Positions 18,410-55,357 are shown, counted from the first letter of the stretch. The stretch: DNA of 64,000 nt from a virus (IMGVR_UViG_3300031998_000010), one strand, 5' to 3'. The notes: generated from the letters alone by a model not told the origin. A program made the numbers and translations.

Positions 18410-19402
18410 TCAAAACAATTTCTTAGCTTTCTTAACTCGTTTAGAATCATCATACTTATAAGTGGTTTTAACTAATTGTTGAATACCCCATATGTTAAAT
18501 GCGGTTCTTGCATCTGCATTATCTCTGACATCTTCCCAAGTTAGTCCACATGAAGTTAATTCTTGTTTAACTATCTCAAAATCGTGTTCACTTGCAAAAT
18601 ATTCAAAAGGAGCACCCGATTTATTATTGTCCTGCCTAACTCTCATTGAAGTTGATATTACTCCAAATGTAGGAGAAATAATCTTACCATATGCGGCCTG
18701 GAGTCTATGACTTACACTATCTGCTGAATAACACTTATTCTTAGCAAGTGACTGTAAAGATGTCATTCCATATAAGTGAGTCTTAACATTAGGGTTACTT
18801 GATTTTGCAATGACATCATTACACTGTGAAATATAAATATCTTTCTCATCTTGAGAAGCATCGTTAGCAGGCGAAATTCCTATATAATCTAACTTACTTC
18901 CATCGTCTGCTCGCCATTCAAGCATATTCTTAAGTGCACTTAAATCTTCACCATAGTGGAATACTGGCATTAACTTTTCAGGAGATTTGAGTTTACTTCT
19001 CATATAAAGATAGTTGTCCCAAGACTTCTGTGCAGACTCTACATAATCCTCGGGTCTCTTCGGTTGCTGAAATTTACCTGGAATAGTATCTAACTGAGCA
19101 AATACATCTGTAAATTCATCAATACTGTTTAAGTAATCAATGTAGTTATCTTCCCACTGCCTAAATGTAGGCTCTTTTATTGATTTATCAGGAAACTTTG
19201 CATTACCTGTGTGAATACTAAATGCACCAGAATCAATAAATAACCATCTGCAAAATCCCTTCTGCTTTAGCCCGATAACATTTGTAATTTCTCCTCTATC
19301 CAACTGAGATACAAGGACATCTAAAGGTTCAAAATTTGGAAGTGACATTAGAGTTTGATGAACAAAAGGTCTAATTGAACCACTAAAAACATATTTATCC
19401 AC
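18410..19402 (-). CDS. TGT-fold base-exchange enzyme, DpdA-like (queuine/archaeosine tRNA-ribosyltransferase-like)
   Basis: LFIDSGAFS, QLDTIP, MPVFH, HLYG, SADS motifs typical of phage TGT-like proteins. Confidence 0.7.
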   Translation of the reverse strand: MDKYVFSGSIRPFVHQTLMSLPNFEPLDVLVSQLDRGEITNVIGLKQKGFCRWLFIDSGAFSIHTGNAKFPDKSIKEPTFRQWEDNYIDYLNSIDEFTDVFAQLDTIPGKFQQPKRPEDYVESAQKSWDNYLYMRSKLKSPEKLMPVFHYGEDLSALKNMLEWRADDGSKLDYIGISPANDASQDEKDIYISQCNDVIAKSSNPNVKTHLYGMTSLQSLAKNKCYSADSVSHRLQAAYGKIISPTFGVISTSMRVRQDNNKSGAPFEYFASEHDFEIVKQELTSCGLTWEDVRDNADARTAFNIWGIQQLVKTTYKYDDSKRVKKAKKLF

Positions 19403-19415
19403 TATGTAATTCTCC

Positions 19416-20204
19416 TTATTCAGTATATTTTAATTCAAAAATCAACTTCGATATAATAGCATTTGTCGACATTCTAGCAAACTGCAAATCATCAAGACAT
19501 TCAAGACAAGGTCTTATCTGATTTGGTTTAAGGATTTGCATTAAGTATCTTATTACTATTGTTACCGGAGCTTCAGAATTATCAGGATAATGTTGAAGCT
19601 TCCAAGCAGTATTACTTACTGTCTCTTTAAATTGTATTATATCTGATAACGATTCAAAATAAGCCAATTTATTTGAATCAAATCCTAATATCATCTTAAC
19701 ATCATTGAAACTCTTGACGCATTTCCAAATCTTTTTACCTTCTATTGAATGAAAATTCTCAAAATTTATACTTGTAGCAAATTGCTCTAAATCGTTAGAA
19801 GTAGGCATTGCTACATCAATAAGAATACATCTACTTAATATTGTATCCGGAATATTCCTAATGTTATTACAAGTAACTGCTACATATAAATATTCAGGGC
19901 ATTCTTCAAGAAATTTAAGGAGAGGATATGCTGCCTGAACAACACCTTCATCAAGATTTTCAATACACATGACAGCAGGAGCATGATTATCTAACAAAGT
20001 ATCAATAACTGTCCTTAACTCATTTACAGAAGGGTTAACTAAAGCTACATCGTTGATGTTCAGCATCTTTGCCCATTCCTTAACTAAAGTAGTTTTTCCG
20101 CAACCTCTGCAGCCAGAAAGGATTATACTGTGCCTGTTAGCTTCACATACATTTTTCAAATTCTTAATTGCAGTTTCTTGACATTGAAAATCCATATCAT
20201 TCAC
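19416..20204 (-). CDS. clamp loader delta-prime-like subunit (HolB-like AAA+)
   Basis: SGCRGCGKTT, LLKFLEE, TILSRC motifs. Confidence 0.75.
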   Translation of the reverse strand: MNDMDFQCQETAIKNLKNVCEANRHSIILSGCRGCGKTTLVKEWAKMLNINDVALVNPSVNELRTVIDTLLDNHAPAVMCIENLDEGVVQAAYPLLKFLEECPEYLYVAVTCNNIRNIPDTILSRCILIDVAMPTSNDLEQFATSINFENFHSIEGKKIWKCVKSFNDVKMILGFDSNKLAYFESLSDIIQFKETVSNTAWKLQHYPDNSEAPVTIVIRYLMQILKPNQIRPCLECLDDLQFARMSTNAIISKLIFELKYTE

Positions 20205-21120
20205 CTAATGCTTGTATACTGGGAATATTCTTAAACCTGAGCAATGCGGCTAAGTAGATGATATATAATGAAGCATCTGAAGAATAGCCTTCTCTTAATT
20301 GCTTAAGTGCCTTATATGTATGATTAAACATCCAATACACATCATACCTTGTCCATTGTTTGCTAACCTTCTGCAAAGGAGATTGTGTATACTTATTATC
20401 AAGACATTTATCTAATTCTATCATTGTTCTAAGTATAGTGTATAATATGTTTTGAATATCACCTTCAAAATGTTCTGACATATAAACTAACGATGTAAAA
20501 TCTCTATTGGCAACAGCCATCATCAAATCAGAATCAGTATAAGTTGTATCTAAGCCAAACAGATATTTTATTTGACCTTCAGATAATGTTACTTTATCCT
20601 GAATTGAGTAAAGACATCTTGCAATATTTTTAGCTTGATAGTAATCTGAAGCTACATTAGCAGAAATCTTACAATATTCATCTTTTAACTCAGGAAAATC
20701 AGACTTAAGATACTTAATGATAAATTTAGTATCTATATGATTTACTATTGCAGTATTCTCAGGAAAGAATTTATCACATTTAGTGACATCTCCGTCGGCT
20801 TCAAAGATTAATACAATACAGCCGTTAATGTTGCACTTTTTAATTCGTTGAGCAAATTCACCGTTCTTCTCAGACAATTTACTCAAAAAAGTTTTATCGT
20901 ACCTAATAACATAAACAGAAGGAGGAATAGGAATGAGTTGTTTCTTCTCCATCGAAGCAATCAAATCTACAACACTAGAGTGCTCAATTCTCTTACCTAT
21001 CTTAGATTCAAGTATGTCAATATACTTCTCTTTGATTCCAAATTCTGTTCCACCTAAGATATAAAAATTCTTAGGTGTATCTCCCATTATACTTAGACCG
21101 AGTTCTTGAATAGTTAACAT
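20197..21120 (-). CDS. clamp loader delta-like subunit (HolA-like)
   Basis: N-terminal FYILGGTE resembles delta YLLxGxE; size and adjacency to delta-prime. Confidence 0.55.
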   Translation of the reverse strand: MLTIQELGLSIMGDTPKNFYILGGTEFGIKEKYIDILESKIGKRIEHSSVVDLIASMEKKQLIPIPPSVYVIRYDKTFLSKLSEKNGEFAQRIKKCNINGCIVLIFEADGDVTKCDKFFPENTAIVNHIDTKFIIKYLKSDFPELKDEYCKISANVASDYYQAKNIARCLYSIQDKVTLSEGQIKYLFGLDTTYTDSDLMMAVANRDFTSLVYMSEHFEGDIQNILYTILRTMIELDKCLDNKYTQSPLQKVSKQWTRYDVYWMFNHTYKALKQLREGYSSDASLYIIYLAALLRFKNIPSIQALGE

Positions 21121-21129
21121 TGTTCACCT

Positions 21130-21489
21130 TTAATCTTCAACACCTAATTCTTCAAATATTTTCTTCATCTTAGGAAACTGTCTGGCAATCCAATCCACTA
21201 CAAAATCTTCATCTTCTGTGCGGTCAAAATGATATGTCAATCCACTTTCTTCAAAAAACGCATGAATTACCTCATGGCGATATACTTTGTTAACATATAT
21301 TTCTAAGTTTTCAGAAGTTTTAGGGTTATGTGTTTTACCATTAGCTTCGTCAATTAAATCTTGGTCTATAACAATCTTTTTAGAAAATTGTTCATGATAC
21401 CCAAAACATTTTTCTAATTTAACATCATCTGAATTTTTGTGATATTCAATCTTGTATTCCTGACCTAAAACAGTTATTTTATTCTTCAT
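21130..21489 (-). CDS. HExxH putative metallopeptidase-like phage protein
   Basis: RHEVIHAFFEESG. Confidence 0.6.
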   Translation of the reverse strand: MKNKITVLGQEYKIEYHKNSDDVKLEKCFGYHEQFSKKIVIDQDLIDEANGKTHNPKTSENLEIYVNKVYRHEVIHAFFEESGLTYHFDRTEDEDFVVDWIARQFPKMKKIFEELGVED

Positions 21490-21492
21490 TTC

Positions 21493-21774
21493 TTAAATAT
21501 CTCCCATCATTTCACCTGGATTCTCATAATAATGCGATATTAAACAAATATTGCTTGCATGAGTTAAATAAGTTACATCATCTATAGTAATCTGTAGCTG
21601 GTCTCCATCCTCATAATCTCGCCAACTTTGAACCTTACCTTCAATAATTTCTCCTGTCGGAAGTTTAATATACGCATAATCGAAATTATATGTAAGGTCA
21701 ACCATTTGATAATTGCAGCTAGTTAAAAGTGCAATCATTAAAACTAAAAGTAAGGCAACGAATACCTTTTTCAT
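21493..21774 (-). CDS. phage lipoprotein
   Basis: Signal peptide with lipobox LTSC. Confidence 0.7.
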   Translation of the reverse strand: MKKVFVALLLVLMIALLTSCNYQMVDLTYNFDYAYIKLPTGEIIEGKVQSWRDYEDGDQLQITIDDVTYLTHASNICLISHYYENPGEMMGDI

Positions 21775-22283
21775 GATTCAAATTGCTCCTGATAAAATTT
21801 CTTAAATTCATCTAACGTCATTATTGCTAACGATTCATCTCCAAAGTTGTCTATGAAGAAATTTATCGTACTTGCACAGTAATGTTTATTATACAATGCT
21901 TTAGCAGATTCATTTGAAAATGTAATAGTATTACCTGAAGTAGAAGTATTAACTAAATTTAATATTTGATTAATACTTTCTGAAGTAATTACTCTTTTTG
22001 GTATCATGACCCAAGTATTTGCAGGTTTTTGAGTCCCATTATCTGTAATTAATGCCGGATACTTATTTGTTGAAATTGATTCTTTCTTAATCTTATCCCA
22101 ATGTGATTTGACAAATACTACGTTAGGTTGCTCATCCACATGTGTTTTGCATTCTACAATATAATGTTCATTTTTGACATCTCCTGGGCGAAAAGGTCGC
22201 GCACCACTCCCAGTGACGACCTTCCAACCCATGAAATTTGCAACCATCTTTTCTTGTTTTGTTGACGCTTCTTTATTCGTCAC
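21771..22283 (-). CDS. Holliday junction resolvase-like PD-(D/E)XK nuclease
   Basis: QE..VA..GSGA..GDV..VECKT. Confidence 0.7.
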   Translation of the reverse strand: MTNKEASTKQEKMVANFMGWKVVTGSGARPFRPGDVKNEHYIVECKTHVDEQPNVVFVKSHWDKIKKESISTNKYPALITDNGTQKPANTWVMIPKRVITSESINQILNLVNTSTSGNTITFSNESAKALYNKHYCASTINFFIDNFGDESLAIMTLDEFKKFYQEQFES

Positions 22284-23433
22284 CTGAAAACTCCTCTAAT
22301 TCAACTTGACCCATATTTGCATTAATGTAAGTACAAAGTTTATCATAATATTCTGGATGATTCTGCAAGTAGTCATATACTTTTGCTAATCCATTTACTT
22401 TAACGATACTTCCGTCTACTTCAAGAGGCTCTTTAGTATCAGGGTCACAGAATGTGAACCATGCTCCGCCTTTTCTAATTAATTCATACTGCTTAATTGC
22501 AAGATTAGCATACTCGTAATCAACTCTCAAGCCTGATTGGGCCATAAGATAATAAGTTCCTAACTTTCTATCAAAAGGAGCAGACTTCTGCTTAACTACT
22601 TTTACATTTATTAAGTAACCAGCAGGATTTTCAGCCTTCATAGGAAGTTCTCCTCCAAGGAAATCAACAGGATTTCCAAGCTTAAATGAAAGTCTCAAGG
22701 AAGCATAGAATTTGATTGCTTCTCCTCCAGGTGTTTGGTCTGCATAAGGGTTATCCATACTAACTCTCAACTGATTGATATATATCATAGTACAATCATA
22801 TCTAGTAAGTAATGGAGTAATTTTTCTACAGAATATTGTCATCAATCCGGCAAGAGATGCAACAGTTCTTTCACCAAATTTTTTATCTAACTCAGAAGCT
22901 GTAACTAACGAAGGAATAGAATCCAATACAATAAGTCCAACTTCTCCAGATTCAATTAATTCCTGAACACTCTGTAGAATCTGTTCTGCAGGAATATCAG
23001 GCGGTTGCATTATCTCAATTGCTTTATTAGTAATTCCTAAAGTAGCTGCCCACTTTCTACTAAATGAATGCTCAAGGTCAATATAAAGGATTTTCTTTGG
23101 ACCTCTGTCACGAAGGTCAGATAATTCTGTCTTATACTCCTTTTTGCCTTCATTTACTTTTTCTTCTAATTCTTGTACTTCAGCTTCGTACTCGGAATTA
23201 AACAAATCTAAAGCACCTTTGCAGATATCAATAGCAGTTGTCGATTTACCGCCTCCAGGCACTCCATAAAACTCTGTGATAGCATTTCTAGGAATTCCAC
23301 CGTAAGTTACCCAGTTAAGTGAAGGTGAAGAAAATGGAATCTTTCTACCTGACGCTTTATTGACACTTTCCATTAATTCAGGACAAGCCCAATCTTTTTC
23401 ACACTTTTTGATAATTTCACTAAATGTTGACAT
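22273..23433 (-). CDS. recA: RecA/UvsX-like recombinase
   Basis: GVPGGGKST, IVLDSI, INQLR, PGGEAIKFYAS; start likely MSTFSE (GGAGGAG SD). Confidence 0.9.
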   Translation of the reverse strand: MSTFSEIIKKCEKDWACPELMESVNKASGRKIPFSSPSLNWVTYGGIPRNAITEFYGVPGGGKSTTAIDICKGALDLFNSEYEAEVQELEEKVNEGKKEYKTELSDLRDRGPKKILYIDLEHSFSRKWAATLGITNKAIEIMQPPDIPAEQILQSVQELIESGEVGLIVLDSIPSLVTASELDKKFGERTVASLAGLMTIFCRKITPLLTRYDCTMIYINQLRVSMDNPYADQTPGGEAIKFYASLRLSFKLGNPVDFLGGELPMKAENPAGYLINVKVVKQKSAPFDRKLGTYYLMAQSGLRVDYEYANLAIKQYELIRKGGAWFTFCDPDTKEPLEVDGSIVKVNGLAKVYDYLQNHPEYYDKLCTYINANMGQVELEEFSGDE

Positions 23434-23953
23434 TCGGCAAATCTCCTCCATGAATATACTGCTGTCTCTTGATAGGAGTATAATCCGGCAAGCTATTTGC
23501 TTCATTGATAGGATTTACTTGTTCTGTACGTTTTCTAGCATCCCAAACCTTCTTTGCTCCCATTATCAATTCTTTAGAAAAAGAAAGTTTGCTCTCTACT
23601 TTACTAATAACACAACTATAGACAATTGACATAAGACGATATTCTTCGTCAATGCTTTCCTGTGTTTGATTCTTACGCTGTTTAATAGTTAATTTGATAA
23701 TTTCATTATGCTGCTTAAACTGTGCAAGTGCATCTGATGCTGCCATCAATTCCAAAGGAAGGGAAGTAATAATCCATTCAAGTTCTTTATCAGTAATTGC
23801 TTTATCTGTATCTTGAAATCGAGCATACATTTCAGCTTCCCTTACGAAGTATTTGGCGAAATACTTATTATAAATATCTAATACAACATCATCTGCAGAC
23901 TTGAAATCGTCTTTCAGTGCCTCCATTGCATTTGATATTGAACTCAAAATCAA
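23420..23953 (-). CDS. helical hypothetical protein upstream of recA (possible recombination mediator)
   Basis: 177 aa; function positional only. Confidence 0.55.
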   Translation of the reverse strand: MILSSISNAMEALKDDFKSADDVVLDIYNKYFAKYFVREAEMYARFQDTDKAITDKELEWIITSLPLELMAASDALAQFKQHNEIIKLTIKQRKNQTQESIDEEYRLMSIVYSCVISKVESKLSFSKELIMGAKKVWDARKRTEQVNPINEANSLPDYTPIKRQQYIHGGDLPNVNI

Positions 23954-24132
23954 TCACCTCCTTTAGGCATTGATGTTTTCTCTATTGCTTTACGCTGAAT
24001 AGAAATCTTCATATCAGCATCCTCAGGAAATTCACTAAATTCTGCTCTAACAAGCATCATTGCAATTCCTAATGTCATACCTCTTGCTAAAACTGTATCT
24101 CCAACTAATACAGAGTATTCATAATCGTTCAT
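23950..24132 (-). CDS. hypothetical protein
   Basis: 60 aa, GAGG SD. Confidence 0.65.
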   Translation of the reverse strand: MNDYEYSVLVGDTVLARGMTLGIAMMLVRAEFSEFPEDADMKISIQRKAIEKTSMPKGGD

Positions 24133-24140
24133 ATTTTACC

Positions 24141-25166
24141 TCATTTCTTAACAGGACTCAACAAATATGTTAATGCAGTCTCTACTTGATACTGAGTTGT
24201 TCTCAAATCCTTGTTCATTGCTAATAATACATTTGCAAGTTTAAGGCATAAGACTGCATGAGCCTCTGTATAGTTAGCAAGTTTATCTGCATACTGAGAA
24301 GGTATCATAGTAGCTCCAATGTCCTTCATATAGATATACTTGATAATGTTGCATAAGAATGAATGATAGCCTTCAAACCATTTTACAAAGTTTGTACCAG
24401 AATTGTAGACCTCATCTACTATTTTAGTTACATTCTCGTTGTCCCTCTTAACTAGATGATTGAGAAGCATAAAATATGTATTGTAATCAGGAAGGTCTAA
24501 TGCCTCACTAACATTGGCAAGAGTCACTTCTTTACTAAAAGCAAGACACCTATCAAGATTAGTTAAACTATCTCTCATTCCTCCATTTGACAACCTAGCA
24601 ATATAGTTTAATGCTTCTTCATCAAATGTAATATTTTGTCCTTCTTTGTTTTCCTGTTCAATTACATATCGTAATCTATTCTGTATTCCTTTAGTACTTA
24701 TTTTTGACAATCTGAATGTCTGTACTCTTGATAAAATCGTAGCCGGAATTTTTTCAGGGTTTGTAGTACAGAATAAAAAGATAGACTTTGCAGGCTGCTC
24801 CTCAAGTGTCTTAAGAAATACTTGAAATGCTTGAGAAGATATTGAATGAACCTCGTCTATAATAAATATCTTGTATTTCATTCCTACAGGAAATGTTGCT
24901 GCCTGAGAAGTTATCTGCCTAATTTCTTCAGTACTTCCATGAGATGCTGCGTCTAATTCAATAGGCTCACCTTTACCTTCATTGAGCTCATTTGCTATGA
25001 TACGCGAAATTGTCGTCTTGCCCGTACCCGCGGGTCCAATGAATAAGAAATTTCTATTAGGAAGCTTCTCAGATTCACACATCTGCTTTACTAAAGATAC
25101 TACTAACGCTTGTTCAGTCATATCCTCGAATTTTCGGGGCCTATATTTTACAGCGAGAGATGCCAT
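24141..25166 (-). CDS. dnaX: clamp loader gamma/tau-like subunit (DnaX-like)
   Basis: LAVKYRP, GPAGTGKTT, ELDAAS, IIDEVH, LKTLEE, TILSR, GGMRD. Confidence 0.9.
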   Translation of the reverse strand: MASLAVKYRPRKFEDMTEQALVVSLVKQMCESEKLPNRNFLFIGPAGTGKTTISRIIANELNEGKGEPIELDAASHGSTEEIRQITSQAATFPVGMKYKIFIIDEVHSISSQAFQVFLKTLEEQPAKSIFLFCTTNPEKIPATILSRVQTFRLSKISTKGIQNRLRYVIEQENKEGQNITFDEEALNYIARLSNGGMRDSLTNLDRCLAFSKEVTLANVSEALDLPDYNTYFMLLNHLVKRDNENVTKIVDEVYNSGTNFVKWFEGYHSFLCNIIKYIYMKDIGATMIPSQYADKLANYTEAHAVLCLKLANVLLAMNKDLRTTQYQVETALTYLLSPVKK

Positions 25167-25206
25167 CGGTATCCTCCTTTAATGTTTTCTTCTATACTAT
25201 AACGAT

Positions 25207-25977
25207 TCACCACTGCTTGCATCTTTCGTAGTATCTGCAATATCCGGGAGTGCAATATCTCAAATCAACAGGCTTAGGAGGAGCAATATTCTTTGCTACA
25301 CAATCCTGAACTTCCCTGAACATATTCCACATTCCTTGCATATCACTATCGGATACTCGGACTTCGTAACATTTCAAATCGCCATACATTCTATCTTGAT
25401 AAAGGACTAATGCTCTATGCAAATTGAGTAATGTACAATAACATTTTACTTGGTCTAAGTGATTAGATTTTACATCTGTGAGCTTCTCAAAGCTTGTGTG
25501 GTCTGACGACTTAATTTCTAATAATGAATATTCATTTTCAAATTTTATTAAGCCATCAGGTGCAAATTTAATCGGAGGGTCAACAATAGATATTCTTGTT
25601 TCAAACCCCATCTGCTCGCATGTATACTTATAGGGAGGATTTAAACTGGCAAGATACTCCTTTACATCTAACCAATCACAGCCTAAAGAATTTATCAAAG
25701 TAGACTGAATGATATGATGACAAGCAGTACCCATATCTGCAGTAAATTGAAGTCCTCTATCAACTGCCTTTTCAGCTTCGGGTTCTACTCCTCTAAGTCT
25801 GAACCAACTGACTCTTTTGCACCTAATAGACGAAGGTGCAAAAGTAGCCGAGGGTTTTTCTGCTTCCTGATTTTTGATGAAAGTATCTACAGCATTTTCA
25901 TAATAATCTAGGAAATTACTACTGAGAGAAGAATTGAACCTTGCAACTCTAAAATTCTCTACAGGTTGAAATGCCAT
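25207..25977 (-). CDS. Cas4-like PD-(D/E)XK exonuclease
   Basis: PSSIRC, GTACH, PDG, EIKS, QxxxY and three C-terminal Cys. Confidence 0.75.
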   Translation of the reverse strand: MAFQPVENFRVARFNSSLSSNFLDYYENAVDTFIKNQEAEKPSATFAPSSIRCKRVSWFRLRGVEPEAEKAVDRGLQFTADMGTACHHIIQSTLINSLGCDWLDVKEYLASLNPPYKYTCEQMGFETRISIVDPPIKFAPDGLIKFENEYSLLEIKSSDHTSFEKLTDVKSNHLDQVKCYCTLLNLHRALVLYQDRMYGDLKCYEVRVSDSDMQGMWNMFREVQDCVAKNIAPPKPVDLRYCTPGYCRYYERCKQW

Positions 25978-25980
25978 ATA

Positions 25981-27084
25981 TTACTCCTGGAATGCTAATA
26001 CGATTGCCAAATTATCTGTCCAGAAAAGACTTCCTGAAAGCTCGCCTTCATTGTAGACAGGGCCAATCTTGATTCTATCACTATCGATGCTAGAGAAAAT
26101 TGACTTGAAGAAAGTTGACTTGAAATCTCCGGCATAATCGTTAAGCTCGCCTGTCTTTGTAATATCAAGTTTGAAATCACCTGAACCTCTATTAAGTGTG
26201 AGTGTATTATTCTCTACCTTAAACGAAGTTGACGTATCCTGAGATGTAGCAACGATATCTGCCTGATTCAGGAACTTGATAATAGGAGCTACATCTACTT
26301 CAATGTAAGACTCCGGCTTATTTAATGTTCCAAGAATTGCTTCTGAATTGTAGCTACCAACGCCTTCGTCTGTCTCATATTCAGGAATAAACTGAGAAGT
26401 AAGTGTATATCCGTCTGTATTTACGCTAAGGACATAACTATTGTCTACTTTCTTAATCTTGGAACCTTCAGGAAGATTAGTAAAGAGATTGATGATAGTA
26501 GGATTCAAAAGACAAGTAGAACCGAGATTTGACTTATTAGACAATGTAAAGATAACATTATCAATATCTCCTACGATTACTTTACTATCTGCACCAACCC
26601 AAACTTTGGTATAGACAGGATGAATCATCCAAACAGAAATAGCAAACATCTGGTGTTCCTTAACAAACTTCCAATCACCTGACTTTAATTCAATACCATC
26701 TGCTGAATCTGTTGTTGCTGGCCTATTTAATGAAAGATTATTAGAATCAATCAACTTAGGAAGTGTGAATTTGCTTGAACCTGAATGGAGTGCAATTCCT
26801 CCGTCTACATATTCAATTGTTGTGATATCCTTATCAAAGGAATCAATCAACTGCCTAAGAAGTGAACAATCAACAAAAATTGTTTCTGCTGTATCAGAAT
26901 CACCCGAACCTCTGAGAACTATCTCTGTGTAAATAGAGGGTGCTTCAATGTTAATTCTCAAATTCTCTCTGTCTGCTGTAACCTGAGCAAGGCAGCTCTT
27001 CTGATTGAATTTAGAAATATTTTCCTTAATAATTCCTAAATCCACTGCATTCTGTAACGGCTTTGTTGACAATGTAAATTTCAT
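25981..27084 (-). CDS. sliding clamp, DNA Pol III beta-like
   Basis: 367 aa (beta-clamp size), MKFTL start, beta-rich; lies between polymerase and clamp loader. Confidence 0.65.
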   Translation of the reverse strand: MKFTLSTKPLQNAVDLGIIKENISKFNQKSCLAQVTADRENLRINIEAPSIYTEIVLRGSGDSDTAETIFVDCSLLRQLIDSFDKDITTIEYVDGGIALHSGSSKFTLPKLIDSNNLSLNRPATTDSADGIELKSGDWKFVKEHQMFAISVWMIHPVYTKVWVGADSKVIVGDIDNVIFTLSNKSNLGSTCLLNPTIINLFTNLPEGSKIKKVDNSYVLSVNTDGYTLTSQFIPEYETDEGVGSYNSEAILGTLNKPESYIEVDVAPIIKFLNQADIVATSQDTSTSFKVENNTLTLNRGSGDFKLDITKTGELNDYAGDFKSTFFKSIFSSIDSDRIKIGPVYNEGELSGSLFWTDNLAIVLAFQE

Positions 27085-27105
27085 TTTGATTTCTCCTTTA
27101 TATTG

Positions 27106-29937: not shown

Positions 29938-29986
29938 AATGTATCCTCGTCAATTCTAAGTTTGTAAAGATAACGAATGTAAGAAA

Positions 29987-30754: not shown

Positions 30755-30885
30755 AATAAAAATTTCCTCCTGTTGATATGTGTTGATTTATTTCATGTGG
30801 GCTTTCGTATCCTGTACTCTTGCACTTGTTGATGTTCAACTACAACCTACATTATTTATATCATACTTTAACGATTCGCCATTTT

Positions 30886-30918: not shown

Positions 30919-30945
30919 TTATATTAGGATTATAAGTAGACTAAC

Positions 30946-41003: not shown

Positions 41004-41012
41004 ACTATATCC

Positions 41013-42422: not shown

Positions 42423-42433
42423 ATGTTAACCTC

Positions 42434-44830: not shown

Positions 44831-44837
44831 TTAATTA

Positions 44838-46727: not shown

Positions 46728-46740
46728 TATTCATACTCCT

Positions 46741-49700
46741 TTAGATTGTTGGTTTTGTATATCTAACTGTGATGTAAGCAGTAGCATTAGCTAATGCAGT
46801 ACCTGCAAGATATGTAATATTTGTTCCATCTATCTTAATGCACAATTCTTCATCTCCAGCAGTCGAATCATAAGCAGAAATCATTCCACTATATGCAACA
46901 TTAGAAGATGTATAACTTGTAAATCCTTCTTTAATAAAGATGATATTAGCAGAAATTCCATGTGCTACAGTCTGTGAAGATGATGCTGACAATGAACTGA
47001 GAGTTAATGTTTGTTCATATAATGTAGTACCATCTGCCCAAGTACCTACAACTTTTTCTCCTGAAGAATAAATATCATGATACTTCACTAACTCGGTTAC
47101 ACGAATTGAATCCCAATGCGTAGGGTCAAATGCTTCTTGAGCAGTAATTGCTGTATTACACCTATAGAGCTGTGTTGTATCACCATCATAATAAATTACA
47201 TAATCTCCAATTGAGTATGCTAAAGTATAAGTTACAACTATTTCATCATCAACAGCCGGAGCAGATGTAAATGTAATCTTATTTGTTGTGTCATCAAAAG
47301 TATAATCTGATGTTTCCGCACCTGCTACTTTGACCGATGTAATTCCTGATGCAACTTTCGTGAGGGTGAATTCGGTAGTAGAACCATCTCCTGTGAAAGT
47401 ATCGCTTACATTCTCATTGTAATTAGATGCTACGCACGAATTTGATAACTTAGATGCAAGATTAGACTGAATGGGATTAATTCTTGTATTTGTATAGGAC
47501 ATTACCGCACTATTTGTAGGAACATTCTCTGTATTATAGAACGGGTCTTGTACCTTATATGTAATTCCTATTTTAGAAGCAATATATTCATAATATGTGT
47601 CTAATGCAAATGTAGGCGCAATTAATGTTCTTGTGAAATAATCTGTATAATTTGTATCCCAGTCTGCAGGCTTATAATCCAATTCAGTATATGTGCCACC
47701 ATCATACTTCCAAATGTTATCCATAACTTCATCCCAGTTAGGATTATTATTTGAAGTATACTGTGCAGCACCTTCTACAGCAACATATTCATCATCTACT
47801 TTTGTGAAATAATCAGAATAGTTATCTTCCCAATCATCAGGTTCTGTTGTAAGAAGATTGTAATAAGGAACGACTGGAGCCGATGTAAATGTTATTGTAT
47901 AATTAGTTGAATCAAAGGTATAATCTACATTTTCAACTTGAACAACTCCATCAAGTGTTACCTCAAGGAGTTCTTCAATTGGTGAATAATTGATTACAAA
48001 AGTTGTAGTTACACCATCTCCTGTGAATTCATCAGTTATAGTTACTATTGTTTGTTCAACAGTACTTGAAGTTTCAACAAAAGCAGAAGTTCCCAATGAT
48101 TTTCCATCAAATGTTTTATTTGTCATATTCTGATACGAAGTAGTATCTATGAGTTGATTATCATTTGCATAAAGCATATTATTCAATACATATACTCTGT
48201 TATTTGAATATGTTATAGGGCTTGTTGAACCGCCATTCTGTGTCTTTGCACCGATGAGATACAGGATTTCTACTTCAGGTGAATTGTATTCAACAATAAT
48301 ATTAGCCTCATCAGCAGGGGCTGTGTTAAATATGATTTGATTTGAAGTACTATCATAAGTATAAGCTGTCGTTTCTACTGTATCTATTGTTATAGAAATA
48401 ATTTCGGCTACAGAATATTCAAGTGTGAATGCTGTTGTAGTTCCATCACCTGTGAATGCTTCAGTATTTTGTATGCCATATTGTACTTGAGACGAACCGG
48501 CTGTATCTTTTGTATCTGTATTAGCAGACGCTGCCCAAGTACCGTCTGCTCTTAATGAATAACTAGCATCTGCAACTAAAGGAGAAGGGACTAATCCCGC
48601 TTCTGTTGTACTAAATATTTCTCCCCAGTCACCATCGCCTCTTAAGAAGTAATTCATTTCACCGGCTGCAGCAGCAGGAACTAATCCTGCTTCACCGGCA
48701 GCAATAGCAGTAGCACCTTGATAATCATTTACAGGAACAGAATCCCAAGTGCCATCACCTTTAAGGAACTTGGCAGTCTCTCCAGCACCAGAAGGCTTAG
48801 GTACAAGACCATCTGCAGAAGGAGTAAATACTGAATAATCAGAAATAGGTAATTGTACTGTTTTTGATGTATTACCATCAGCAGAAGTTAATGTTAATCC
48901 TACTCCTGTAGTATAGTCTACATCTGCATAATATGTAGCGTCAATCTGATTTCCGGCACTATCATTTGTTGCACTGTCAGCTGATGTAGCCGTTCCAATT
49001 GATATATTTGCTTTATCAACCCACCCAGAACCTGTCAGTACTAAATCAGCTAAAGTTCCACCCGAAGCCGCAGGAACTATTCCTGCTTGTAAACTAGTAA
49101 ATTGAGAATAGACATGGTCTGATACTCTAACTACTTTTGTATTTCCATTTCCTAATGTAAATGTAAGAGCAGAGCCTAAATCAGAAGATGCATTACTGCT
49201 GACATCATGAAGATAATAATCAGTTATTGTATGATTACTACTATCCTTCATTGCACTAGTTGCACTTGTTGCTGTAGTAGCAGAATTTGCACTTGTTGCT
49301 GTAGTAGCAGAACCATCAATATCTGCATGAATCTTTCCAGTAGTTGTGATATAAATATCAGGTGTCTTTAATAAAGTTCCTGTCCAGGTATCTTGTTGAG
49401 CACTTGCTACAAGGTAGGCTTTTGTATTCCAAGGACTTTGCTTAACAGACTGAACTTGAGAATCTGATACTTCAGCATTATTGAATACTGGATAAAATTC
49501 GCTATTGTCTTCATTCCAGCAGTAACCTGTGGTAGCATTTCCTTCTGTTACTACAAATATTGTATCTCTTTCGTGTCTAGCATTTGCTAAATTTTCTACA
49601 TATTCAATAGCACTAGCTTTTCTTCTAACAACAGACTGACCACTTCCTGCAGGATTTCCTACATCATAATATAATCCATCTGTATCAGAAAGTGAAATTA

Positions 49701-49779
49701 CATTTCCTTCAACTAATGGAACTGTAGATAATTCATCAAATGTTGTAACATAATATTTTCTTTGAATACTTGTCGGCAT
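46741..49779 (-). CDS. tail fibre protein
   Basis: ATSA repeats, GLVP..FLRGDG.W repeats, three FTGDG.TT.F domains. Confidence 0.7.
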   Translation of the reverse strand: MPTSIQRKYYVTTFDELSTVPLVEGNVISLSDTDGLYYDVGNPAGSGQSVVRRKASAIEYVENLANARHERDTIFVVTEGNATTGYCWNEDNSEFYPVFNNAEVSDSQVQSVKQSPWNTKAYLVASAQQDTWTGTLLKTPDIYITTTGKIHADIDGSATTATSANSATTATSATSAMKDSSNHTITDYYLHDVSSNASSDLGSALTFTLGNGNTKVVRVSDHVYSQFTSLQAGIVPAASGGTLADLVLTGSGWVDKANISIGTATSADSATNDSAGNQIDATYYADVDYTTGVGLTLTSADGNTSKTVQLPISDYSVFTPSADGLVPKPSGAGETAKFLKGDGTWDSVPVNDYQGATAIAAGEAGLVPAAAAGEMNYFLRGDGDWGEIFSTTEAGLVPSPLVADASYSLRADGTWAASANTDTKDTAGSSQVQYGIQNTEAFTGDGTTTAFTLEYSVAEIISITIDTVETTAYTYDSTSNQIIFNTAPADEANIIVEYNSPEVEILYLIGAKTQNGGSTSPITYSNNRVYVLNNMLYANDNQLIDTTSYQNMTNKTFDGKSLGTSAFVETSSTVEQTIVTITDEFTGDGVTTTFVINYSPIEELLEVTLDGVVQVENVDYTFDSTNYTITFTSAPVVPYYNLLTTEPDDWEDNYSDYFTKVDDEYVAVEGAAQYTSNNNPNWDEVMDNIWKYDGGTYTELDYKPADWDTNYTDYFTRTLIAPTFALDTYYEYIASKIGITYKVQDPFYNTENVPTNSAVMSYTNTRINPIQSNLASKLSNSCVASNYNENVSDTFTGDGSTTEFTLTKVASGITSVKVAGAETSDYTFDDTTNKITFTSAPAVDDEIVVTYTLAYSIGDYVIYYDGDTTQLYRCNTAITAQEAFDPTHWDSIRVTELVKYHDIYSSGEKVVGTWADGTTLYEQTLTLSSLSASSSQTVAHGISANIIFIKEGFTSYTSSNVAYSGMISAYDSTAGDEELCIKIDGTNITYLAGTALANATAYITVRYTKPTI

Positions 49780-49813
49780 TTAAGTGACCTCGCAATGTAT
49801 TTTTACATAAAAA

Positions 49814-49846
49814 TATGAATGTGTAATTAAACCTTACACATTCATA
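49814..49846 (-). terminator. 13-bp hairpin + U-rich tail
   Basis: TATGAATGTGTAA-N7-TTACACATTCATA TTTTT. Confidence 0.55.
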
Positions 49847-49873
49847 AAAGGTTATGAGGCCACTAAATATCAG

Positions 49874-50113
49874 TTACCAATCCTCAAAATCTGGTTCGTA
49901 TTTTGATAATTTCTTATGTGTGATATATAACTTCTTACGAAGTTCATCATTTTGTCTAACTAAGTCAGTATTGTCTTTGATAATAGTTTCATTATTCTGT
50001 TCAGACTCAAATAACTGATTCTTTAAGCTATGTACTTCAAAGTGAGTAGAAATCCTAGCAAATAAAATTCCTAATATTAAGCATAAGATTCCAATGATTA
50101 TTTTATCAACCAT
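49874..50113 (-). CDS. small membrane-anchored coiled-coil protein
   Basis: N-terminal TM helix, heptads. Confidence 0.65.
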   Translation of the reverse strand: MVDKIIIGILCLILGILFARISTHFEVHSLKNQLFESEQNNETIIKDNTDLVRQNDELRKKLYITHKKLSKYEPDFEDW

Positions 50114-50114
50114 A

Positions 50115-51596
50115 TCATTTAAACAACCTTTCGTAATTTTCTTTCCAAGGAAGATTAGATTCTAATTGTCTACATATTGCAAATACTTTGTCGTCTTCAT
50201 ATCTCTTTCCAATAACTTGTAATCCAATAGGAAGTCCTTCATTTGAAAGTCCGATTGGAATAGAAGCAGCCGGAGTTCCTATCATATTTTCTAAATAAGT
50301 ATAGCCGAATCCAATAAGTGGGTCAACTTTTTCATTCTTGATATATTCAGGTCCCTTTGTATCAAAATCATCTGAATTCTTAACAGGTAAACAACCTGTG
50401 ACAGGGGCTAGTATTATATCATAGTTATCAAATATGTCATAATGTGCATCAAGTATATTTGTCCTGATTTCATGAAATTTTCTATAATCTAGCATACTTG
50501 ATTTTAGAGCAATGTTATTCCATGTTATAAAAGCCTCAGGCAATTCTTCTGCATAATCACGAAGTAAATCAAATCCATTTTGCCTATCAATTTCACAATC
50601 TATAGCAGTGTCAATGCATATTCCACGTAACCATGCATTTTCAAGTTCTTCCCTTGAATATTTGAACTTAAATGTAACAGGTTCAATTTCGTATCCGAGT
50701 GAACGAAGTACTTCAAATGAATTAATCATTGCTTCTTTGATTTCGTCTTCAGGGTCTGCAAATATATTGAAATCAAAAGTATATCCAATCTTGAATTTAC
50801 GACCTTCGACTACAGTTAATCTTGAAATTATATTTCTCACTAAATCAGGAGGAGTAGGAACACTGATAGGGTCTCTAGGGTCATACTTTATCATTGCAGA
50901 AAGAACATTTGCAGCATCGGCTACTGTTCTTGTTATTGGACCTCCACAACAATAGGGATGTGTAGCTGTCCATGCATCTGGTCTGCATACACTTGGAACT
51001 AATCCAGCTGAAGGTTTGAATCCAAAACATCCGCACCATGCAGCAGGAATTCTAATTGAACCTCCAGCATCTCCGCCTTCTGCGATTGCAAGAAGACCTG
51101 AAGCAACTGCTGATGCACTACCTCCTGAAGAACCTCCTGAATTATATCCTATCTTAAAAGGAGTAGATGTAGGTCCATACATCTTATTATCTGTTGTTCC
51201 TCTAAATCCAAATGCTGGTGCATTAGTTTTACCAATTACAATAGCACCTAATTTTTCCATTGCTTTGCATATTTCAGAATCATAATCGTCAGGACATACA
51301 AGGCAGTTAACGCCTCCGTGAGAAGATAACCACCCTTTCTTAGACGGCAAGAAATCCTTTAAACCAACAGGAACTCCTGCAAAGGGTCCGACGTATTCAT
51401 TCTTTGCAATTTTTTCTTCAATCTCTTTTGCACGAATTCTAGCAATTTCAAATTTAGTATATACAATAGCATTGATTTTAGGATTGATTTCTGCAATCCT
51501 CTTTTCATATGCATCAAGAATCTCTGTAGGCTTGATTTTCTTTGATGTAACTAAATTACCTAATTCTAATGCAGAACAATAGAAAATATCTTTCAT
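50115..51596 (-). CDS. amidase-signature family enzyme (GatA-like fold)
   Basis: GVPVGLKD, GKTN, GGSSGGSA, GGSIRIPAAWCG; intact Lys-Ser-Ser triad. Confidence 0.92.
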   Translation of the reverse strand: MKDIFYCSALELGNLVTSKKIKPTEILDAYEKRIAEINPKINAIVYTKFEIARIRAKEIEEKIAKNEYVGPFAGVPVGLKDFLPSKKGWLSSHGGVNCLVCPDDYDSEICKAMEKLGAIVIGKTNAPAFGFRGTTDNKMYGPTSTPFKIGYNSGGSSGGSASAVASGLLAIAEGGDAGGSIRIPAAWCGCFGFKPSAGLVPSVCRPDAWTATHPYCCGGPITRTVADAANVLSAMIKYDPRDPISVPTPPDLVRNIISRLTVVEGRKFKIGYTFDFNIFADPEDEIKEAMINSFEVLRSLGYEIEPVTFKFKYSREELENAWLRGICIDTAIDCEIDRQNGFDLLRDYAEELPEAFITWNNIALKSSMLDYRKFHEIRTNILDAHYDIFDNYDIILAPVTGCLPVKNSDDFDTKGPEYIKNEKVDPLIGFGYTYLENMIGTPAASIPIGLSNEGLPIGLQVIGKRYEDDKVFAICRQLESNLPWKENYERLFK

Positions 51597-51613
51597 TATT
51601 ATTTTCTCCTAAG

Positions 51614-52408
51614 TTATATTATATCTTTGAATAACGAATGATTAGATGTAAAAATAGTAAGTAAATTCTTACCTAACATTTCTTTATAATTATCAAATGT
51701 ACATTTCTTCATATAATCAATCAATTCAGGAAGATATGTTTCGATATTAAGGTCATCAGAAACTTCTTTTAAGTATTCAAACTGAGCAATCTTCGTTGCT
51801 TTCTGTTCTTCAAATTCTTCTTTTGTGGCAGGTGACCTAAATTTAATTCCACAGCCAAGAGCCCAGTTTCTACCATACTGACTAATTCCGATAGAAGTAG
51901 AACCTGAACTACTATGAAATATTCTTGTATGAGGCATTCTGCAAGTAATACTCCTTACTGGGTGAATCTTGCACCTATATATTCCATCTTTAAGCTTAAA
52001 CAGATGATAACAGACATCTCTTTCTTTTTCAGGGTCTTTTGTGTTTACAACCATTCGCTGCTTTCTTTCGGGACATACATAAACGGTGATTTCTTTTCCA
52101 TTAATGATATGTTTAGTAGGTACGATAGTACTCTGAAGATTGTGAAGATTTTCTACCTGAAGCCCATAATCAATAAAATCCTGGTCTGTATAAGCCATTA
52201 ATCTTTCATATTCTTTTTGTGTAAGAAGTAAGTTTTCTGTGATACAACAACACTTGCCACAACTATCACAACCATCTACGTCAAAGAATGTAGGTGATAA
52301 AATAAGGCTTTTCCGATTAGTATCAAATACCTCATCATCGATTGTAACTGCTTTCTTTGATAAAGGAAGCAAATACTGCATTATCTTACTAAGATTGTTG
52401 ACGCTCAT
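51614..52408 (-). CDS. CxxCxxCC (YkgJ/FliB-like) cysteine-cluster protein, paralogue 1
   Basis: CDSCGKCC, CYHL, CKIHPVRSITCR. Confidence 0.8.
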   Translation of the reverse strand: MSVNNLSKIMQYLLPLSKKAVTIDDEVFDTNRKSLILSPTFFDVDGCDSCGKCCCITENLLLTQKEYERLMAYTDQDFIDYGLQVENLHNLQSTIVPTKHIINGKEITVYVCPERKQRMVVNTKDPEKERDVCYHLFKLKDGIYRCKIHPVRSITCRMPHTRIFHSSSGSTSIGISQYGRNWALGCGIKFRSPATKEEFEEQKATKIAQFEYLKEVSDDLNIETYLPELIDYMKKCTFDNYKEMLGKNLLTIFTSNHSLFKDII

Positions 52409-53190
52409 ACAATTCCCTCCAACATTTTTGATTTTGTATTGATAATAGGTAAAATATCTTTACCTAAAAATTGCTTATGATTTTCAAATGCTGCATTGCT
52501 GATGTACTGAATCATTTCTGGAAGATATGTATCACAATTCAAATCATTAGCGACTCTCAAGAGATATTCAAGTAATGCAATTCTGTCTGCTTTGATAGCA
52601 TTGAATTTTTCTTCTGTCTCACATTCTTTGAATTTGATAGGACAACCTACAGCCCAATTTCTACCATACTGACTAACTGCAAATGAAACTGTTCCTTTAT
52701 TATTGCAGAAAAGTCTAACATGCGGTACTCTACAAGTAATACTTCTCACAGGATGAATACCACATCTATAAAGACCTTCATCATTCTTAAATAAGTAATG
52801 ACAAGTTTTACTATCACGATTCTTATAAGGATTATGAATAGTCTGCAAAGGTTGAGAACACCTGTAAAGCTTTATTTCTTTTCCATTGATTATATGTGAC
52901 TCTACTTCGATTGTATCTCTAAATGTATGTAAATTTTCTACTGGGAGGCTATAATCAATGAATTCCTGGTCTGTGCAATTCTTTAAATTTTCATGTTCGT
53001 GTTCAGTAAGTACAACCATCTCTGGGACACACATACAACAAGTTCCGCAACATACACAATCATCAATCAAGAAGAAAGATGGCGAGAATGAAAGTTTCTT
53101 AGCCTGATTATCATATACCTTACCATCAACTTCTATCGGTACTTTACATACAGGCGATATATAATGAAGTAATTTACTGATGTTATCCAT
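52405..53190 (-). CDS. CxxCxxCC (YkgJ/FliB-like) cysteine-cluster protein, paralogue 2
   Basis: CVCCGTCC, CHYL, CGIHPVRSITCR; colinear with paralogue 1. Confidence 0.8.
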   Translation of the reverse strand: MDNISKLLHYISPVCKVPIEVDGKVYDNQAKKLSFSPSFFLIDDCVCCGTCCMCVPEMVVLTEHEHENLKNCTDQEFIDYSLPVENLHTFRDTIEVESHIINGKEIKLYRCSQPLQTIHNPYKNRDSKTCHYLFKNDEGLYRCGIHPVRSITCRVPHVRLFCNNKGTVSFAVSQYGRNWAVGCPIKFKECETEEKFNAIKADRIALLEYLLRVANDLNCDTYLPEMIQYISNAAFENHKQFLGKDILPIINTKSKMLEGIV

Positions 53191-53252
53191 GTAATCCTCC
53201 TAAATTTTACTATTGTAAATAACGATTCTTAATGTTGTCAATACTGCATTTG

Positions 53253-53819
53253 TCATATATTCTCCTGATTTTCTGGAAATACTAATCTAACTAAATCATC
53301 TATAGGCCAATATACATTAATCTGTCCACGATATCCAGATTCATGTTTTCGATGAAAATGATATACAGCTGTTCCTGACATTTTTTGATAATACTGCGGT
53401 TTAAGTTCTTTTGCAATATAGGCCACGGAATCTTTAACTTCATCTCCGTCTATGTTTCTACATCTGCATATCTTTCGTGCTTTCCTTCGTACTTTACCCG
53501 ATTTAGCTACTTCGTATAATTCTTCAAAATCAGGAACAGGTCGCCATTCTTCTGTATCTTCTATAACAGGACCTGGCCATACTAAATCATGCAATCTATC
53601 CACACGAACCATTTTGTGTTCTCCATCTTTAGCTAATAATACATGTGGATGATATGCACCGCACATAACAGGTTTTAATATCCTGGACTTAAATGACCTT
53701 GTCATTAATTTACCTGCACGAATGCATGAAACTGTTCTGTCTAAACTTCGTACTCGACCTAAGTTACTCACTTCGTAGTAACCTTCGTAACCAGGTACAG
53801 CTTTCCATTGTTCTTCCAT
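53253..53819 (-). CDS. double-NUMOD4 protein lacking HNH motif
   Basis: EQWKAVPGYEGYYEVSNLGRVRS and EEWRPVPDFEELYEV. Confidence 0.8.
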   Translation of the reverse strand: MEEQWKAVPGYEGYYEVSNLGRVRSLDRTVSCIRAGKLMTRSFKSRILKPVMCGAYHPHVLLAKDGEHKMVRVDRLHDLVWPGPVIEDTEEWRPVPDFEELYEVAKSGKVRRKARKICRCRNIDGDEVKDSVAYIAKELKPQYYQKMSGTAVYHFHRKHESGYRGQINVYWPIDDLVRLVFPENQENI

Positions 53820-53822
53820 AGA

Positions 53823-54479
53823 TTAATCCTCTTTATACAATTCAGGGAATGCTGATTTAATTAAATCTTCTGCTTTATAATAAGCATCTGTTTGACCACA
53901 TCGGCCTGTCTTATATCTTTTATGAAGATGATACACTGCTACGCCTGATTTCTTATTAAATCTATAAGGCTTTAATTCTCTAGATTCATATTCAGGGCAA
54001 TCTTCAAACGATATAGCATTTCTACTACGTTCACGCAGAACCCGCCTAGTTATACTCCTTACTTTTCCAGTATTAGATACTTCATATATATTTTCATATC
54101 CAGGAATATTTCGCCATTCTTCTTTTAAATTATTAGATATATTCGACCTAGTATGATATGGAACCCAAACAAGATTATTCGCAGAGTTGTTGGTTTTATC
54201 AGAATCTTTATGATTTATAAAAGAATATTTATTTGGATTAGCTACAAAAGCTTCTGCAACTAAACGACTCAATTTCATAGAAGTAAATGAACCATCTTTA
54301 TACAAATTAACTACAGGGTCTTTACCCGTCTTAAGTGGGCGTAACTCCCTGCCTGAACGGAATCTAACAACAATTCTATTTATCTTAAAAGATTCATATC
54401 TATCTAAACTACGAACTTTTCCTAGATTGCTTACTTCATAAACACCTTCGTAATCTTTTATTGGTCTCCACTCTTCCAT
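53823..54479 (-). CDS. NUMOD4-HNH-NUMOD4 homing-endonuclease-like protein
   Basis: EEWRPIKDYEG.YEVSNLG, INHKDSDKTNNSANNL.W, second NUMOD4. Confidence 0.8.
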   Translation of the reverse strand: MEEWRPIKDYEGVYEVSNLGKVRSLDRYESFKINRIVVRFRSGRELRPLKTGKDPVVNLYKDGSFTSMKLSRLVAEAFVANPNKYSFINHKDSDKTNNSANNLVWVPYHTRSNISNNLKEEWRNIPGYENIYEVSNTGKVRSITRRVLRERSRNAISFEDCPEYESRELKPYRFNKKSGVAVYHLHKRYKTGRCGQTDAYYKAEDLIKSAFPELYKED

Positions 54480-54543
54480 GATTAAATCCTCGGCCTAGGA
54501 ATGTCCTGTGTGTTATCTGTCATAATTTTCTCCTTATAAAAAG

Positions 54544-54578
54544 ATAGAGTGTAACCATAGATGATGGCTACACTCTAT
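54544..54578 (-). terminator. 15-bp hairpin after transporter gene
   Basis: ATAGAGTGTAGCCAT-N5-ATGGTTACACTCTAT CTTTT. Confidence 0.55.
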
Positions 54579-54601
54579 ATAACGATTTTAGTTTATGTAA
54601 G

Positions 54602-55357
54602 TTATACTACTGAATACTTTTCAAGATAATCAGAACCTACGTTGTCTTTCTTCCAATTTCTAGACATCTTGTAACCGATAGGGCTGAATACCATCTCAAT
54701 TACAAGTTCCAAGAGCATCATCATAAATGAGCAGACGAAAACCTGTGTGAGTGTCCATCCAAAGAAAATATAAGATACAAACAAGGCAAATACAAGATTA
54801 TCTACAAACTGACCTGCTGCTGTTGATAAGAAACTTCTAATAGCAAATCCGCCAAAATTATCTTTCTTATCTACTTTCTTTCCAATGAACTTATTAACAA
54901 TAGAATTTACAAGTCCACCAAGGTACATTGCTACAGCAGAACCAATTACAATAAACCAAGAAGATGAGAATGTTGCGTCTACGCTTGCATTGATTGCATC
55001 AGCTACTGCAGGGTCTGTGGCTGAATAACTTGCTGCCCAAATTCCGGGAATCTTACAAATTAACATGTAGATTATACCAGTTAATAAGTTTGCAACCATA
55101 GCTACTGTATTGAGAATCGTTGCTGCACGAGCTCCAAATCTCTTACATGTAGCATCCATGCATAAGAAACTTATCCACGAAACAAAAATTCCGGCAGTTG
55201 ATGCAAGCCAAGGTAAGTTAAAGATGGACTTGTTTGCTAAAAGATTCATTGACACAACTGAAAGGATGAAAAAGGCTGTTACCAACCCGGGAATAGCTCT
55301 CATTGTGTCCTTCACTTCTTCGACTAATGAATACTTAGTCTTTGTTTTTGAAACCAT
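54602..55357 (-). CDS. VUT/YhhQ-family queuosine precursor transporter
   Basis: About 6 TM helices; NLLANK, D...KRFG..AA, R...ST..GQFVDNLVF. Confidence 0.8.
   Translation of the reverse strand: MVSKTKTKYSLVEEVKDTMRAIPGLVTAFFILSVVSMNLLANKSIFNLPWLASTAGIFVSWISFLCMDATCKRFGARAATILNTVAMVANLLTGIIYMLICKIPGIWAASYSATDPAVADAINASVDATFSSSWFIVIGSAVAMYLGGLVNSIVNKFIGKKVDKKDNFGGFAIRSFLSTAAGQFVDNLVFALFVSYIFFGWTLTQVFVCSFMMMLLELVIEMVFSPIGYKMSRNWKKDNVGSDYLEKYSVV

Follow-up and report, generated by a model that had tools for sequence, protein, structure and literature searches.

A candidate salvage-type 7-deazaguanine DNA modification system with a transporter-linked amidase in an uncultured gut or rumen phage

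The 64,000-nucleotide (nt) stretch of viral DNA analysed here (the window; bases 65,918-129,917 of the 175,559-bp IMG/VR record IMGVR_UViG_3300031998_000010, 100% complete according to CheckV) belongs to a 175-kb uncultured gut or rumen phage. With modest confidence, we propose that it encodes a salvage-only version of the phage DNA modification in which guanine is replaced by 7-deazaguanines of the 7-aminomethyl-7-deazaguanine (preQ1) type. Four steps are envisaged. A transporter of the YhhQ family, encoded behind a preQ1-riboswitch-like leader, would import a 7-deazaguanine precursor, as its family and gene context suggest. An amidase-signature enzyme, presumably the ancestral operon partner of YhhQ, would then hydrolyse an amide in the imported compound and free preQ1, the simplest source being an N-acylated preQ1. 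Judging from its homology to the enzyme of Streptococcus phage Dp-1, the transglycosylase DpdA would exchange guanine in phage DNA for preQ1, and two paralogues homologous to DpdM would N-methylate the resulting deoxynucleoside dPreQ1 to its methylated form mdPreQ1, possibly in two steps or acting as a pair. In the second step, the link to YhhQ comes from comparative genomics and the substrate is our inference.

7-Deazaguanine modifications let phage DNA withstand restriction enzymes, and they are a much-studied case of enzymology common to tRNA and DNA modification. All described routes known to us build 7-cyano-7-deazaguanine (preQ0) or preQ1 from GTP or take up the base as such. If our proposal is correct, a transporter-coupled amidase would be a new salvage reaction, and gut and rumen environments would contain a precursor that has gone unrecognised. 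The YhhQ-amidase pair spans more than 100 phage protein clusters as well as bacteria apparently unable to make preQ1. The leader is probably a new type of preQ1 riboswitch variant, and the presence of two DpdM paralogues makes one ask whether dPreQ1 can be methylated past mdPreQ1. The YhhQ-amidase salvage pair, the probable variant leader and the duplicated DpdM are not described in the literature that we searched.

Locus organisation in the phage and its relatives

No gene for making the base was found. The FolE, QueD, QueC and radical-SAM/QueE families had no match anywhere in the 175,559-bp record, and phage QueF, QueC, QueD, QueE and FolE used as tblastn queries found nothing in the whole genome. 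The initial annotation of this DNA had noted that folE, queD, queE and queC are missing from the window; this is borne out and holds genome-wide. Because it has no genes that make the base, the phage must scavenge it. The description of the system as salvage-type and physically split is likewise supported: the DpdA gene lies 31 kb apart from the remaining module, and the split layout recurs in relatives.

For comparison, four related IMG/VR records were taken in full, together with several other loci including L002. In these five relatives (the four records and L002) the gene order at this locus is YhhQ, QueF, QueC, QueD, QueE and FolE, followed by the amidase, a small gene (orf79) and tail genes, with DpdA 18-50 kb from the locus in the four whole records. 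L002 additionally carries, between FolE and the amidase, two genes for Cys-cluster (CxxC) proteins that are 88-91% identical to the pair in the window. A near-identical phage from an independent sample, L132 (amidase 97%, YhhQ 99.6% and CxxC proteins 95-98% identical), has the order Vut_1 (that is, YhhQ), HNH, QueT, CxxC, CxxC, amidase and no biosynthesis genes. Since L132 shows the salvage layout independently, this layout is real and not an assembly artefact. The QueT gene of L132 also shows that the slot downstream of yhhQ has room for a second precursor transporter. In the window, the slot that holds QueF-QueC-QueD-QueE-FolE or QueT in relatives is filled by two HNH genes, selfish inserts between YhhQ and the Cys-cluster paralogues that were absent from the initial annotation.

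The amidase and its tie to YhhQ

The residues K80, S156 and S180 of the amidase are invariant in the alignment and form a Lys-cisSer-Ser triad accompanied by a GGSSGG motif. The nearest solved relative is an aryl acylamidase (4yj6, 6e-107). This enzyme (PDB 4yj6/4yji) resembles the phage protein over the full length and in its Ser-cisSer-Lys triad and frees the amine from an N-acyl aromatic amine, whereas its biological context is unlike that of the phage amidase. GatA is also among the solved relatives. However, the GatA equivalog model TIGR00132 gave 221 bits against a cut-off of 481, and the protein does not qualify as an equivalog of GatA, AtzE or allophanate hydrolase. A role as GatA was rejected, because the score is far under the cut-off and such a role has no logic in genomes without QueC.

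Relatives of the amidase form more than 120 protein clusters with 53-97% identity, often on contigs of 100-230 kb, and they keep company with the transporter. Wherever a related phage locus includes upstream sequence, YhhQ lies 0.6-5 kb upstream of the amidase, and the two genes are directly adjacent in L049, L146 and L147. A search of 1.8 billion representatives returned a natural Vut_1-amidase fusion of 713 amino acids (aa; P0178) as well as a contig on which YhhQ ends 2 nt before the amidase. Two inspected YhhQ genes, whose products are 75-79% identical to that of the window, stand directly 5' of an amidase on phage-like contigs of 132 kb and 202 kb, with no que gene within 6 kb. The association extends to bacteria. 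Among 400 genomes from the class of one Clostridiales metagenome-assembled genome (MAG), three Clostridia genomes (guanine plus cytosine (GC) content 47-53%) carry the pair as a stand-alone operon, with YhhQ (34-49% identity) directly upstream of the amidase (50-55%). The neighbouring genes differ in each genome and are ordinary chromosomal ones (GH8, PrmA, a T-box leader, solute-binding proteins). All three encode Tgt (1e-166) and QueA (1e-142) and, provisionally, no true QueC and no QueF, so that they would need external preQ1.

Other searches with the amidase were less informative. Against GenBank phages, tblastn gave only matches of 25-30% identity without contextual value, and a GTDB scan with a generic DAGGSIRIP-type amidase motif returned generic amidases without YhhQ neighbours. 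An amidase with 45% identity is encoded on the Clostridiales MAG contig L053, in whose genome YhhQ was not found; the gene contexts of P0179 and P0183 were uninformative.

Because the amidase tracks YhhQ, we propose that it carries out a salvage step on an imported small molecule; it is probably a partner of YhhQ and not a DNA-tailoring enzyme. If its product is preQ1, the substrate would be an amide on the aminomethyl group. The initial annotation had instead cast the enzyme as tailoring the DNA base or supplying ammonia. Such a role, which would comprise either conversion of 7-amido-7-deazaguanine to 7-carboxy-7-deazaguanine (CDG), on the base or in DNA, or a GatA-like ammonia supply to QueC, is in our view unlikely. 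It would agree with the position of the amidase beside FolE and the que cluster in the five relatives, with the solved structure of GatA among its relatives and with the operon that it shares with the DpdM-like genes in the window. Against this, the enzyme is intact where QueC is absent (in the genome studied here, in L132 and in the loci around L146 and L147), and fusion to a membrane transporter does not suit an enzyme acting on DNA. Moreover, CDG or ammonia for QueC would be useless to the pair-bearing bacteria, because they are without QueC and QueF, and the GatA equivalog score falls well short. The remark that no described pathway uses an amidase-signature enzyme in this way still holds: our literature search turned up no publication that places such an enzyme in a deazaguanine pathway.

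The YhhQ transporter and its leader

The window YhhQ is about 37% identical to that of L002, its closest CxxC-bearing relative, but 68-79% identical to many other YhhQs, among them those of other phage contigs at 75-79%, and 47-49% identical to bacterial ones. These mosaic identities suggest that yhhQ was replaced by recombination in this phage. A tblastn search with YhhQ against GenBank phages returned nothing.

A hairpin leader with a stem of 5-8 bp, a loop of 15-22 nt and an A-rich tail that continues into the Shine-Dalgarno sequence precedes all 15 yhhQ genes considered, which come from ten phage loci (the window among them), three bacterial genomes, the phage L004 and the fusion. The loops begin with UU(U/C), or with UAC in the fusion gene, and end in C. 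The alignment of 11 distinct sequences has six stem columns, in which all 66 cells are canonical; five of the columns show compensatory changes. The window leader, whose loop contains UUCCUU as the complement of the Shine-Dalgarno sequence AAGGAG, has a minimum free energy of -14.8 kcal/mol (z -1.73); a structural scan of the whole 175-kb genome gave it as the sole site. In the related phage L003 the motif occurs again, at the head of the QueF-QueC-QueD-QueE-FolE operon.

The architecture recalls preQ1-I riboswitches, here compared with the aptamers of Bacillus subtilis and T. tengcongensis. Common to both are a short hairpin, an A-rich tail into the ribosome-binding site, a loop closed by C and a position before transporter genes or que operons. 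In contrast, the loop is longer here (15-22 nt versus about 11-13), and Rfam gave no riboswitch match at gathering score in the window, the yhhQ leader, the related loci or the bacterial leaders. The leader is therefore called preQ1-riboswitch-like and not a member of the class. It is probably a variant preQ1 riboswitch.

Could the YhhQ-amidase pair be unrelated to deazaguanines, handle another amide such as a vitamin or a nitrogen source, and merely lie near modification genes? The VUT ("vitamin uptake transporter") family is broad, the queuosine precursor transporter model TIGR00697 scores the window YhhQ under its cut-off (8e-11, 42.1 bits versus 50.95), and Rfam does not recognise a preQ1 riboswitch. 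Nevertheless, YhhQ directly adjoins que genes (QueF or FolE) in relatives, the QueT transporter takes the same slot in L132, the QueF-QueC-QueD-QueE-FolE operon of L003 stands under the same leader motif, and the bacteria with the pair have Tgt and QueA without QueC and QueF. We consider this explanation quite unlikely.

The DpdM-like paralogues and DpdA

The two Cys-cluster proteins, which the initial annotation had left as unexplained accessory enzymes, are assigned to the DpdM family of dPreQ1 N-methyltransferase homologues. DpdM is a YkgJ-like dPreQ1 methyltransferase that has a CxxxCxxCC motif and for which two metal sites are predicted; it was validated with the gene of Vibrio phage VH7D (Cui et al. 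2023, PMC10516641). We took the phiSM DpdM sequence from its GenBank record; its Cys positions agree with those in PMC10516641, and it passes the Pfam CxxCxxCC model. On the same model (PF03692) the window protein stays under the cut-off (13.8 bits). A profile of 19 members of the window family aligned by hhalign with a phiSM/Pan1/VH7D profile over 197 columns (99.2% probability, E 7.9e-20). This match and the repeated adjacency of such genes to QueF, DpdA or YhhQ in other phages are the grounds for the assignment. Eight invariant Cys residues (C47, C50, C54, C55, C133, C146, C156 and C186) are present in both paralogues and correspond to C34, C38, C41, C42, C92, C102, C112 and C150 of phiSM. 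An AlphaFold2 model of paralogue 1 (predicted local distance difference test score 85) had only three significant fold matches in BFVD, of 214, 304 and 217 aa; the matches came without names, and the lengths 304 and 217 equal those of VH7D and phiSM DpdM, the Pan1 protein having 216 aa. The N-methylation suggested earlier for these proteins is consistent with this homology. A tblastn search with the CxxC protein against GenBank phages found nothing, and a PDB sequence search gave only chance-level adrenodoxin matches. Identity with the lysine methylase FliB was rejected, as that link is at superfamily level only.

Gene context is in line with the assignment. Related phages L003 and L145 have a single CxxC copy between YhhQ and QueF-QueC-QueD-QueE-FolE, and L004, an unrelated PolA phage, has CxxC, DpdA (48% identical to that of the window) and YhhQ together. 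In two phages with the full que cluster, a short-chain dehydrogenase gene (adh_short) lies directly 3' of the DpdM-like gene (L003:10989-11666; L145:8792-9481), and a 50%-identical homologue is found outside the window at genome position 149203-149733; the dehydrogenase may be a further member of the pathway.

The present system shares with the described DpdA/DpdM system (PMC10516641) a DpdA and a YkgJ-like Cys-cluster protein with a predicted pair of metal sites, from a family linked to QueF, and the window proteins align with DpdM over nearly the full length. It differs in having two tandem paralogues instead of one, a CxxCxxCC instead of a CxxxCxxCC motif and only 24-29% identity. Furthermore, the phage studied here is without FolE, QueD, QueE, QueC and QueF, its DpdA gene is 31 kb off, and an importer and an amidase are added. 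The DpdM part is thus of an already known kind, whereas the tandem duplication is new. The two paralogues (47% mutual identity, CxxCxxCC-type motifs, overlapping stop and start codons) are kept as a tandem in L002, L132 and a 9-kb contig.

The TGT-fold gene, tRNA-guanine transglycosylase (TGT) being the namesake of the fold, had been described as ending the clamp-loader operon, and its start indeed follows the clamp-loader gene (19416-20204) by 13 nt. Its 330-aa product is a member of the phage DpdA family and is predicted to act on DNA. In tblastn it matches Bacillus phage Flasso (39%, 1e-45), the Dp-1 DpdA (44.7%, 2e-42; 58% of the protein covered) and the DpdA of Pseudomonas phage iggy (25%, 4e-10), and orthologues in the four related phage records are 44-86% identical. 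There is neither a Pfam TGT match nor a PDB sequence match. Dp-1, with one of the closest named DpdAs, places preQ1 in its DNA, where dPreQ1 makes up about 1.7% of G (Hutinet et al. 2019, PMC6884629). In contrast to the phage studied here, it has its own preQ1 synthesis and lacks a DpdM-like gene and an amidase. The DpdA-only and YhhQ-bearing phages (Hutinet et al. 2019; the CAjan cluster, PMC7544227) are similar in needing a host-made or imported 7-deazapurine and in encoding YhhQ themselves; they differ in having no amidase partner and no DpdM, and their base is preQ0 where measured.

DpdA-only phages often have no or only trace modification (PMC6884629), and this, as well as the loss of the biosynthesis genes and the homing endonucleases in their slot, might indicate that the module is a decaying remnant, in which YhhQ, the amidase and the DpdM-like genes have lost their use and DpdA inserts at most traces of a host-made base. 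We regard decay as improbable: none of the five genes is truncated and their catalytic and ligand residues are intact, the same layout is 95-99% identical in an independent sample that has an added QueT, and the 132- and 202-kb contigs combine YhhQ and amidase with no que gene within 6 kb. That the TGT-like enzyme acts on host or phage tRNA, restoring or altering a queuosine-type modification, is very improbable despite its membership in the TGT superfamily, given its relatedness to phage DpdAs including that of Dp-1, whose DNA carries dPreQ1, the lack of a Pfam TGT match, the position of the gene among replication genes and the proposed action of DpdM on DNA (PMC10516641).

Points against the salvage proposal

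Several observations weigh against salvage by importer and amidase as proposed here. No N-acyl-preQ1-type metabolite is known to us as a nutrient, and the only natural amide of preQ1 that we know of is fdPreQ1. This natural amide occurs in phage DNA (PMC10516641). The phage is uncultured. In addition to the TIGR00697 score under its cut-off, the Rfam preQ1 models gave no match even at an E-value of 10 on queries of 131-151 nt. The bacterial genomes may be incomplete, which makes their lack of QueC and QueF provisional. No amidase lies within 8-10 kb of the CxxC gene in L003 and L145. Finally, the window amidase is transcribed with the DpdM-like genes and not with YhhQ, and from this operon a role after insertion of the base would be possible.

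A bolder version of the salvage proposal appears doubtful to us. YhhQ and the amidase would form an undescribed two-component preQ1 salvage, with import of an N-acylated preQ1 and its cleavage to preQ1, that serves tRNA queuosine in preQ1-auxotrophic Clostridia and was captured by a large group of gut or rumen phages, and the duplicated DpdM would take the modification beyond the monomethyl stage, for example to a dimethylated base.

Layout of the window and minor observations

All genes named in the initial annotation were found again at the same positions on the minus strand, as are nearly all genes of the window, whose GC content is about 34%. In the direction of transcription, the region 50115-55357 contains Vut_1/YhhQ, two NUMOD4/HNH genes, the two Cys-cluster paralogues and the amidase (Table 1). 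Because terminator-like hairpins follow YhhQ and orf79, we assign three transcription units: leader-YhhQ, HNH-HNH and CxxC2-CxxC1-amidase-orf79.

Table 1 Features of the proposed modification system and its surroundings (positions in the window)
Feature	Position	Strand	Evidence
DpdA-family DNA guanine transglycosylase (predicted), 330 aa, GTG start	18410..19402	-	phrog_887 4e-36; tblastn
VUT/YhhQ-family transporter, 251 aa, putative 7-deazaguanine precursor importer	54602..55357	-	PF02592 2.3e-20, 73.9 bits, above cut-off
Riboswitch-like yhhQ leader	55365..55427	-	7-bp hairpin 55391-55424, 20-nt loop UUUU...C, A-rich tail into Shine-Dalgarno
Amidase-signature enzyme, 493 aa	50115..51596	-	PF01425 2.8e-89, 300.7 bits; Lys80/Ser156/Ser180 triad intact
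DpdM-like Cys-cluster protein, paralogue 2, 261 aa	52405..53190	-	blastp phiSM DpdM 4e-6
DpdM-like Cys-cluster protein, paralogue 1, 264 aa	51614..52408	-	blastp phiSM DpdM 29% over 163 aa, 5e-8
Two NUMOD4/HNH homing-endonuclease genes	53823-54479, 53253-53819	-	PF07463, PF13392, phrog_1492
Small membrane-anchored coiled-coil protein orf79, 79 aa	49874..50113	-	N-terminal hydrophobic helix; phrog_3671; co-transcribed with amidase
Terminator-like hairpin 3' of yhhQ	54544..54578	-	15-bp stem and T-run
Terminator-like hairpin closing the amidase operon	49814..49846	-	13-bp stem and T-run
Promoter-like region of the CxxC-CxxC-amidase-orf79 operon	53204..53241	-	TTGACA-18-TACAAT, 11/12; holds AATCGTTA at 53220-53227

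The motif AATCGTTA is probably a phage promoter element. It occurs 20 times in the window compared with 2.0 expected copies (ten-fold), 18 of the 20 being on the minus (coding) strand, and its sites span 9296-60608, mostly 20-60 nt 5' of ribosome-binding sites of the AGGAGG type. One copy stands before YhhQ (55440-55447), another before the HNH pair (54580-54587) and a third before the CxxC pair, the last falling within the spacer of the TTGACA-18-TACAAT promoter-like site (53212-53241). The amidase lacks its own copy and is part of the CxxC operon.

The slot between yhhQ and the DpdM-like genes is highly plastic. It holds the two HNH genes in the window (53253-54479), HNH and QueT in L132 (2454-3535), and QueF-HNH-QueC-QueD-QueE-FolE with three small open reading frames in L002 (3662-7156). 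Homing endonucleases may drive the gene turnover in it. The 6.4-kb module has no nucleotide match among GenBank phages.

At the other end of the amidase operon, orf79 lies directly after the amidase and ahead of tail genes, a position kept in relatives. On the 5' side of yhhQ, a gene for a 287-aa acidic protein (55449-56312) has no family match, and L132, the near-identical phage, was the only place where a homologue turned up (80% identity). The related 159-kb phage L145 encodes an Amidase_2 endolysin with a ChW domain (5712-6686). This endolysin and the strong AGGAGG ribosome-binding sites point to Clostridia-type Firmicutes as hosts of the group. In L003, the NrdD gene is split by an intein and by a DUF7487 gene (15447-20014).

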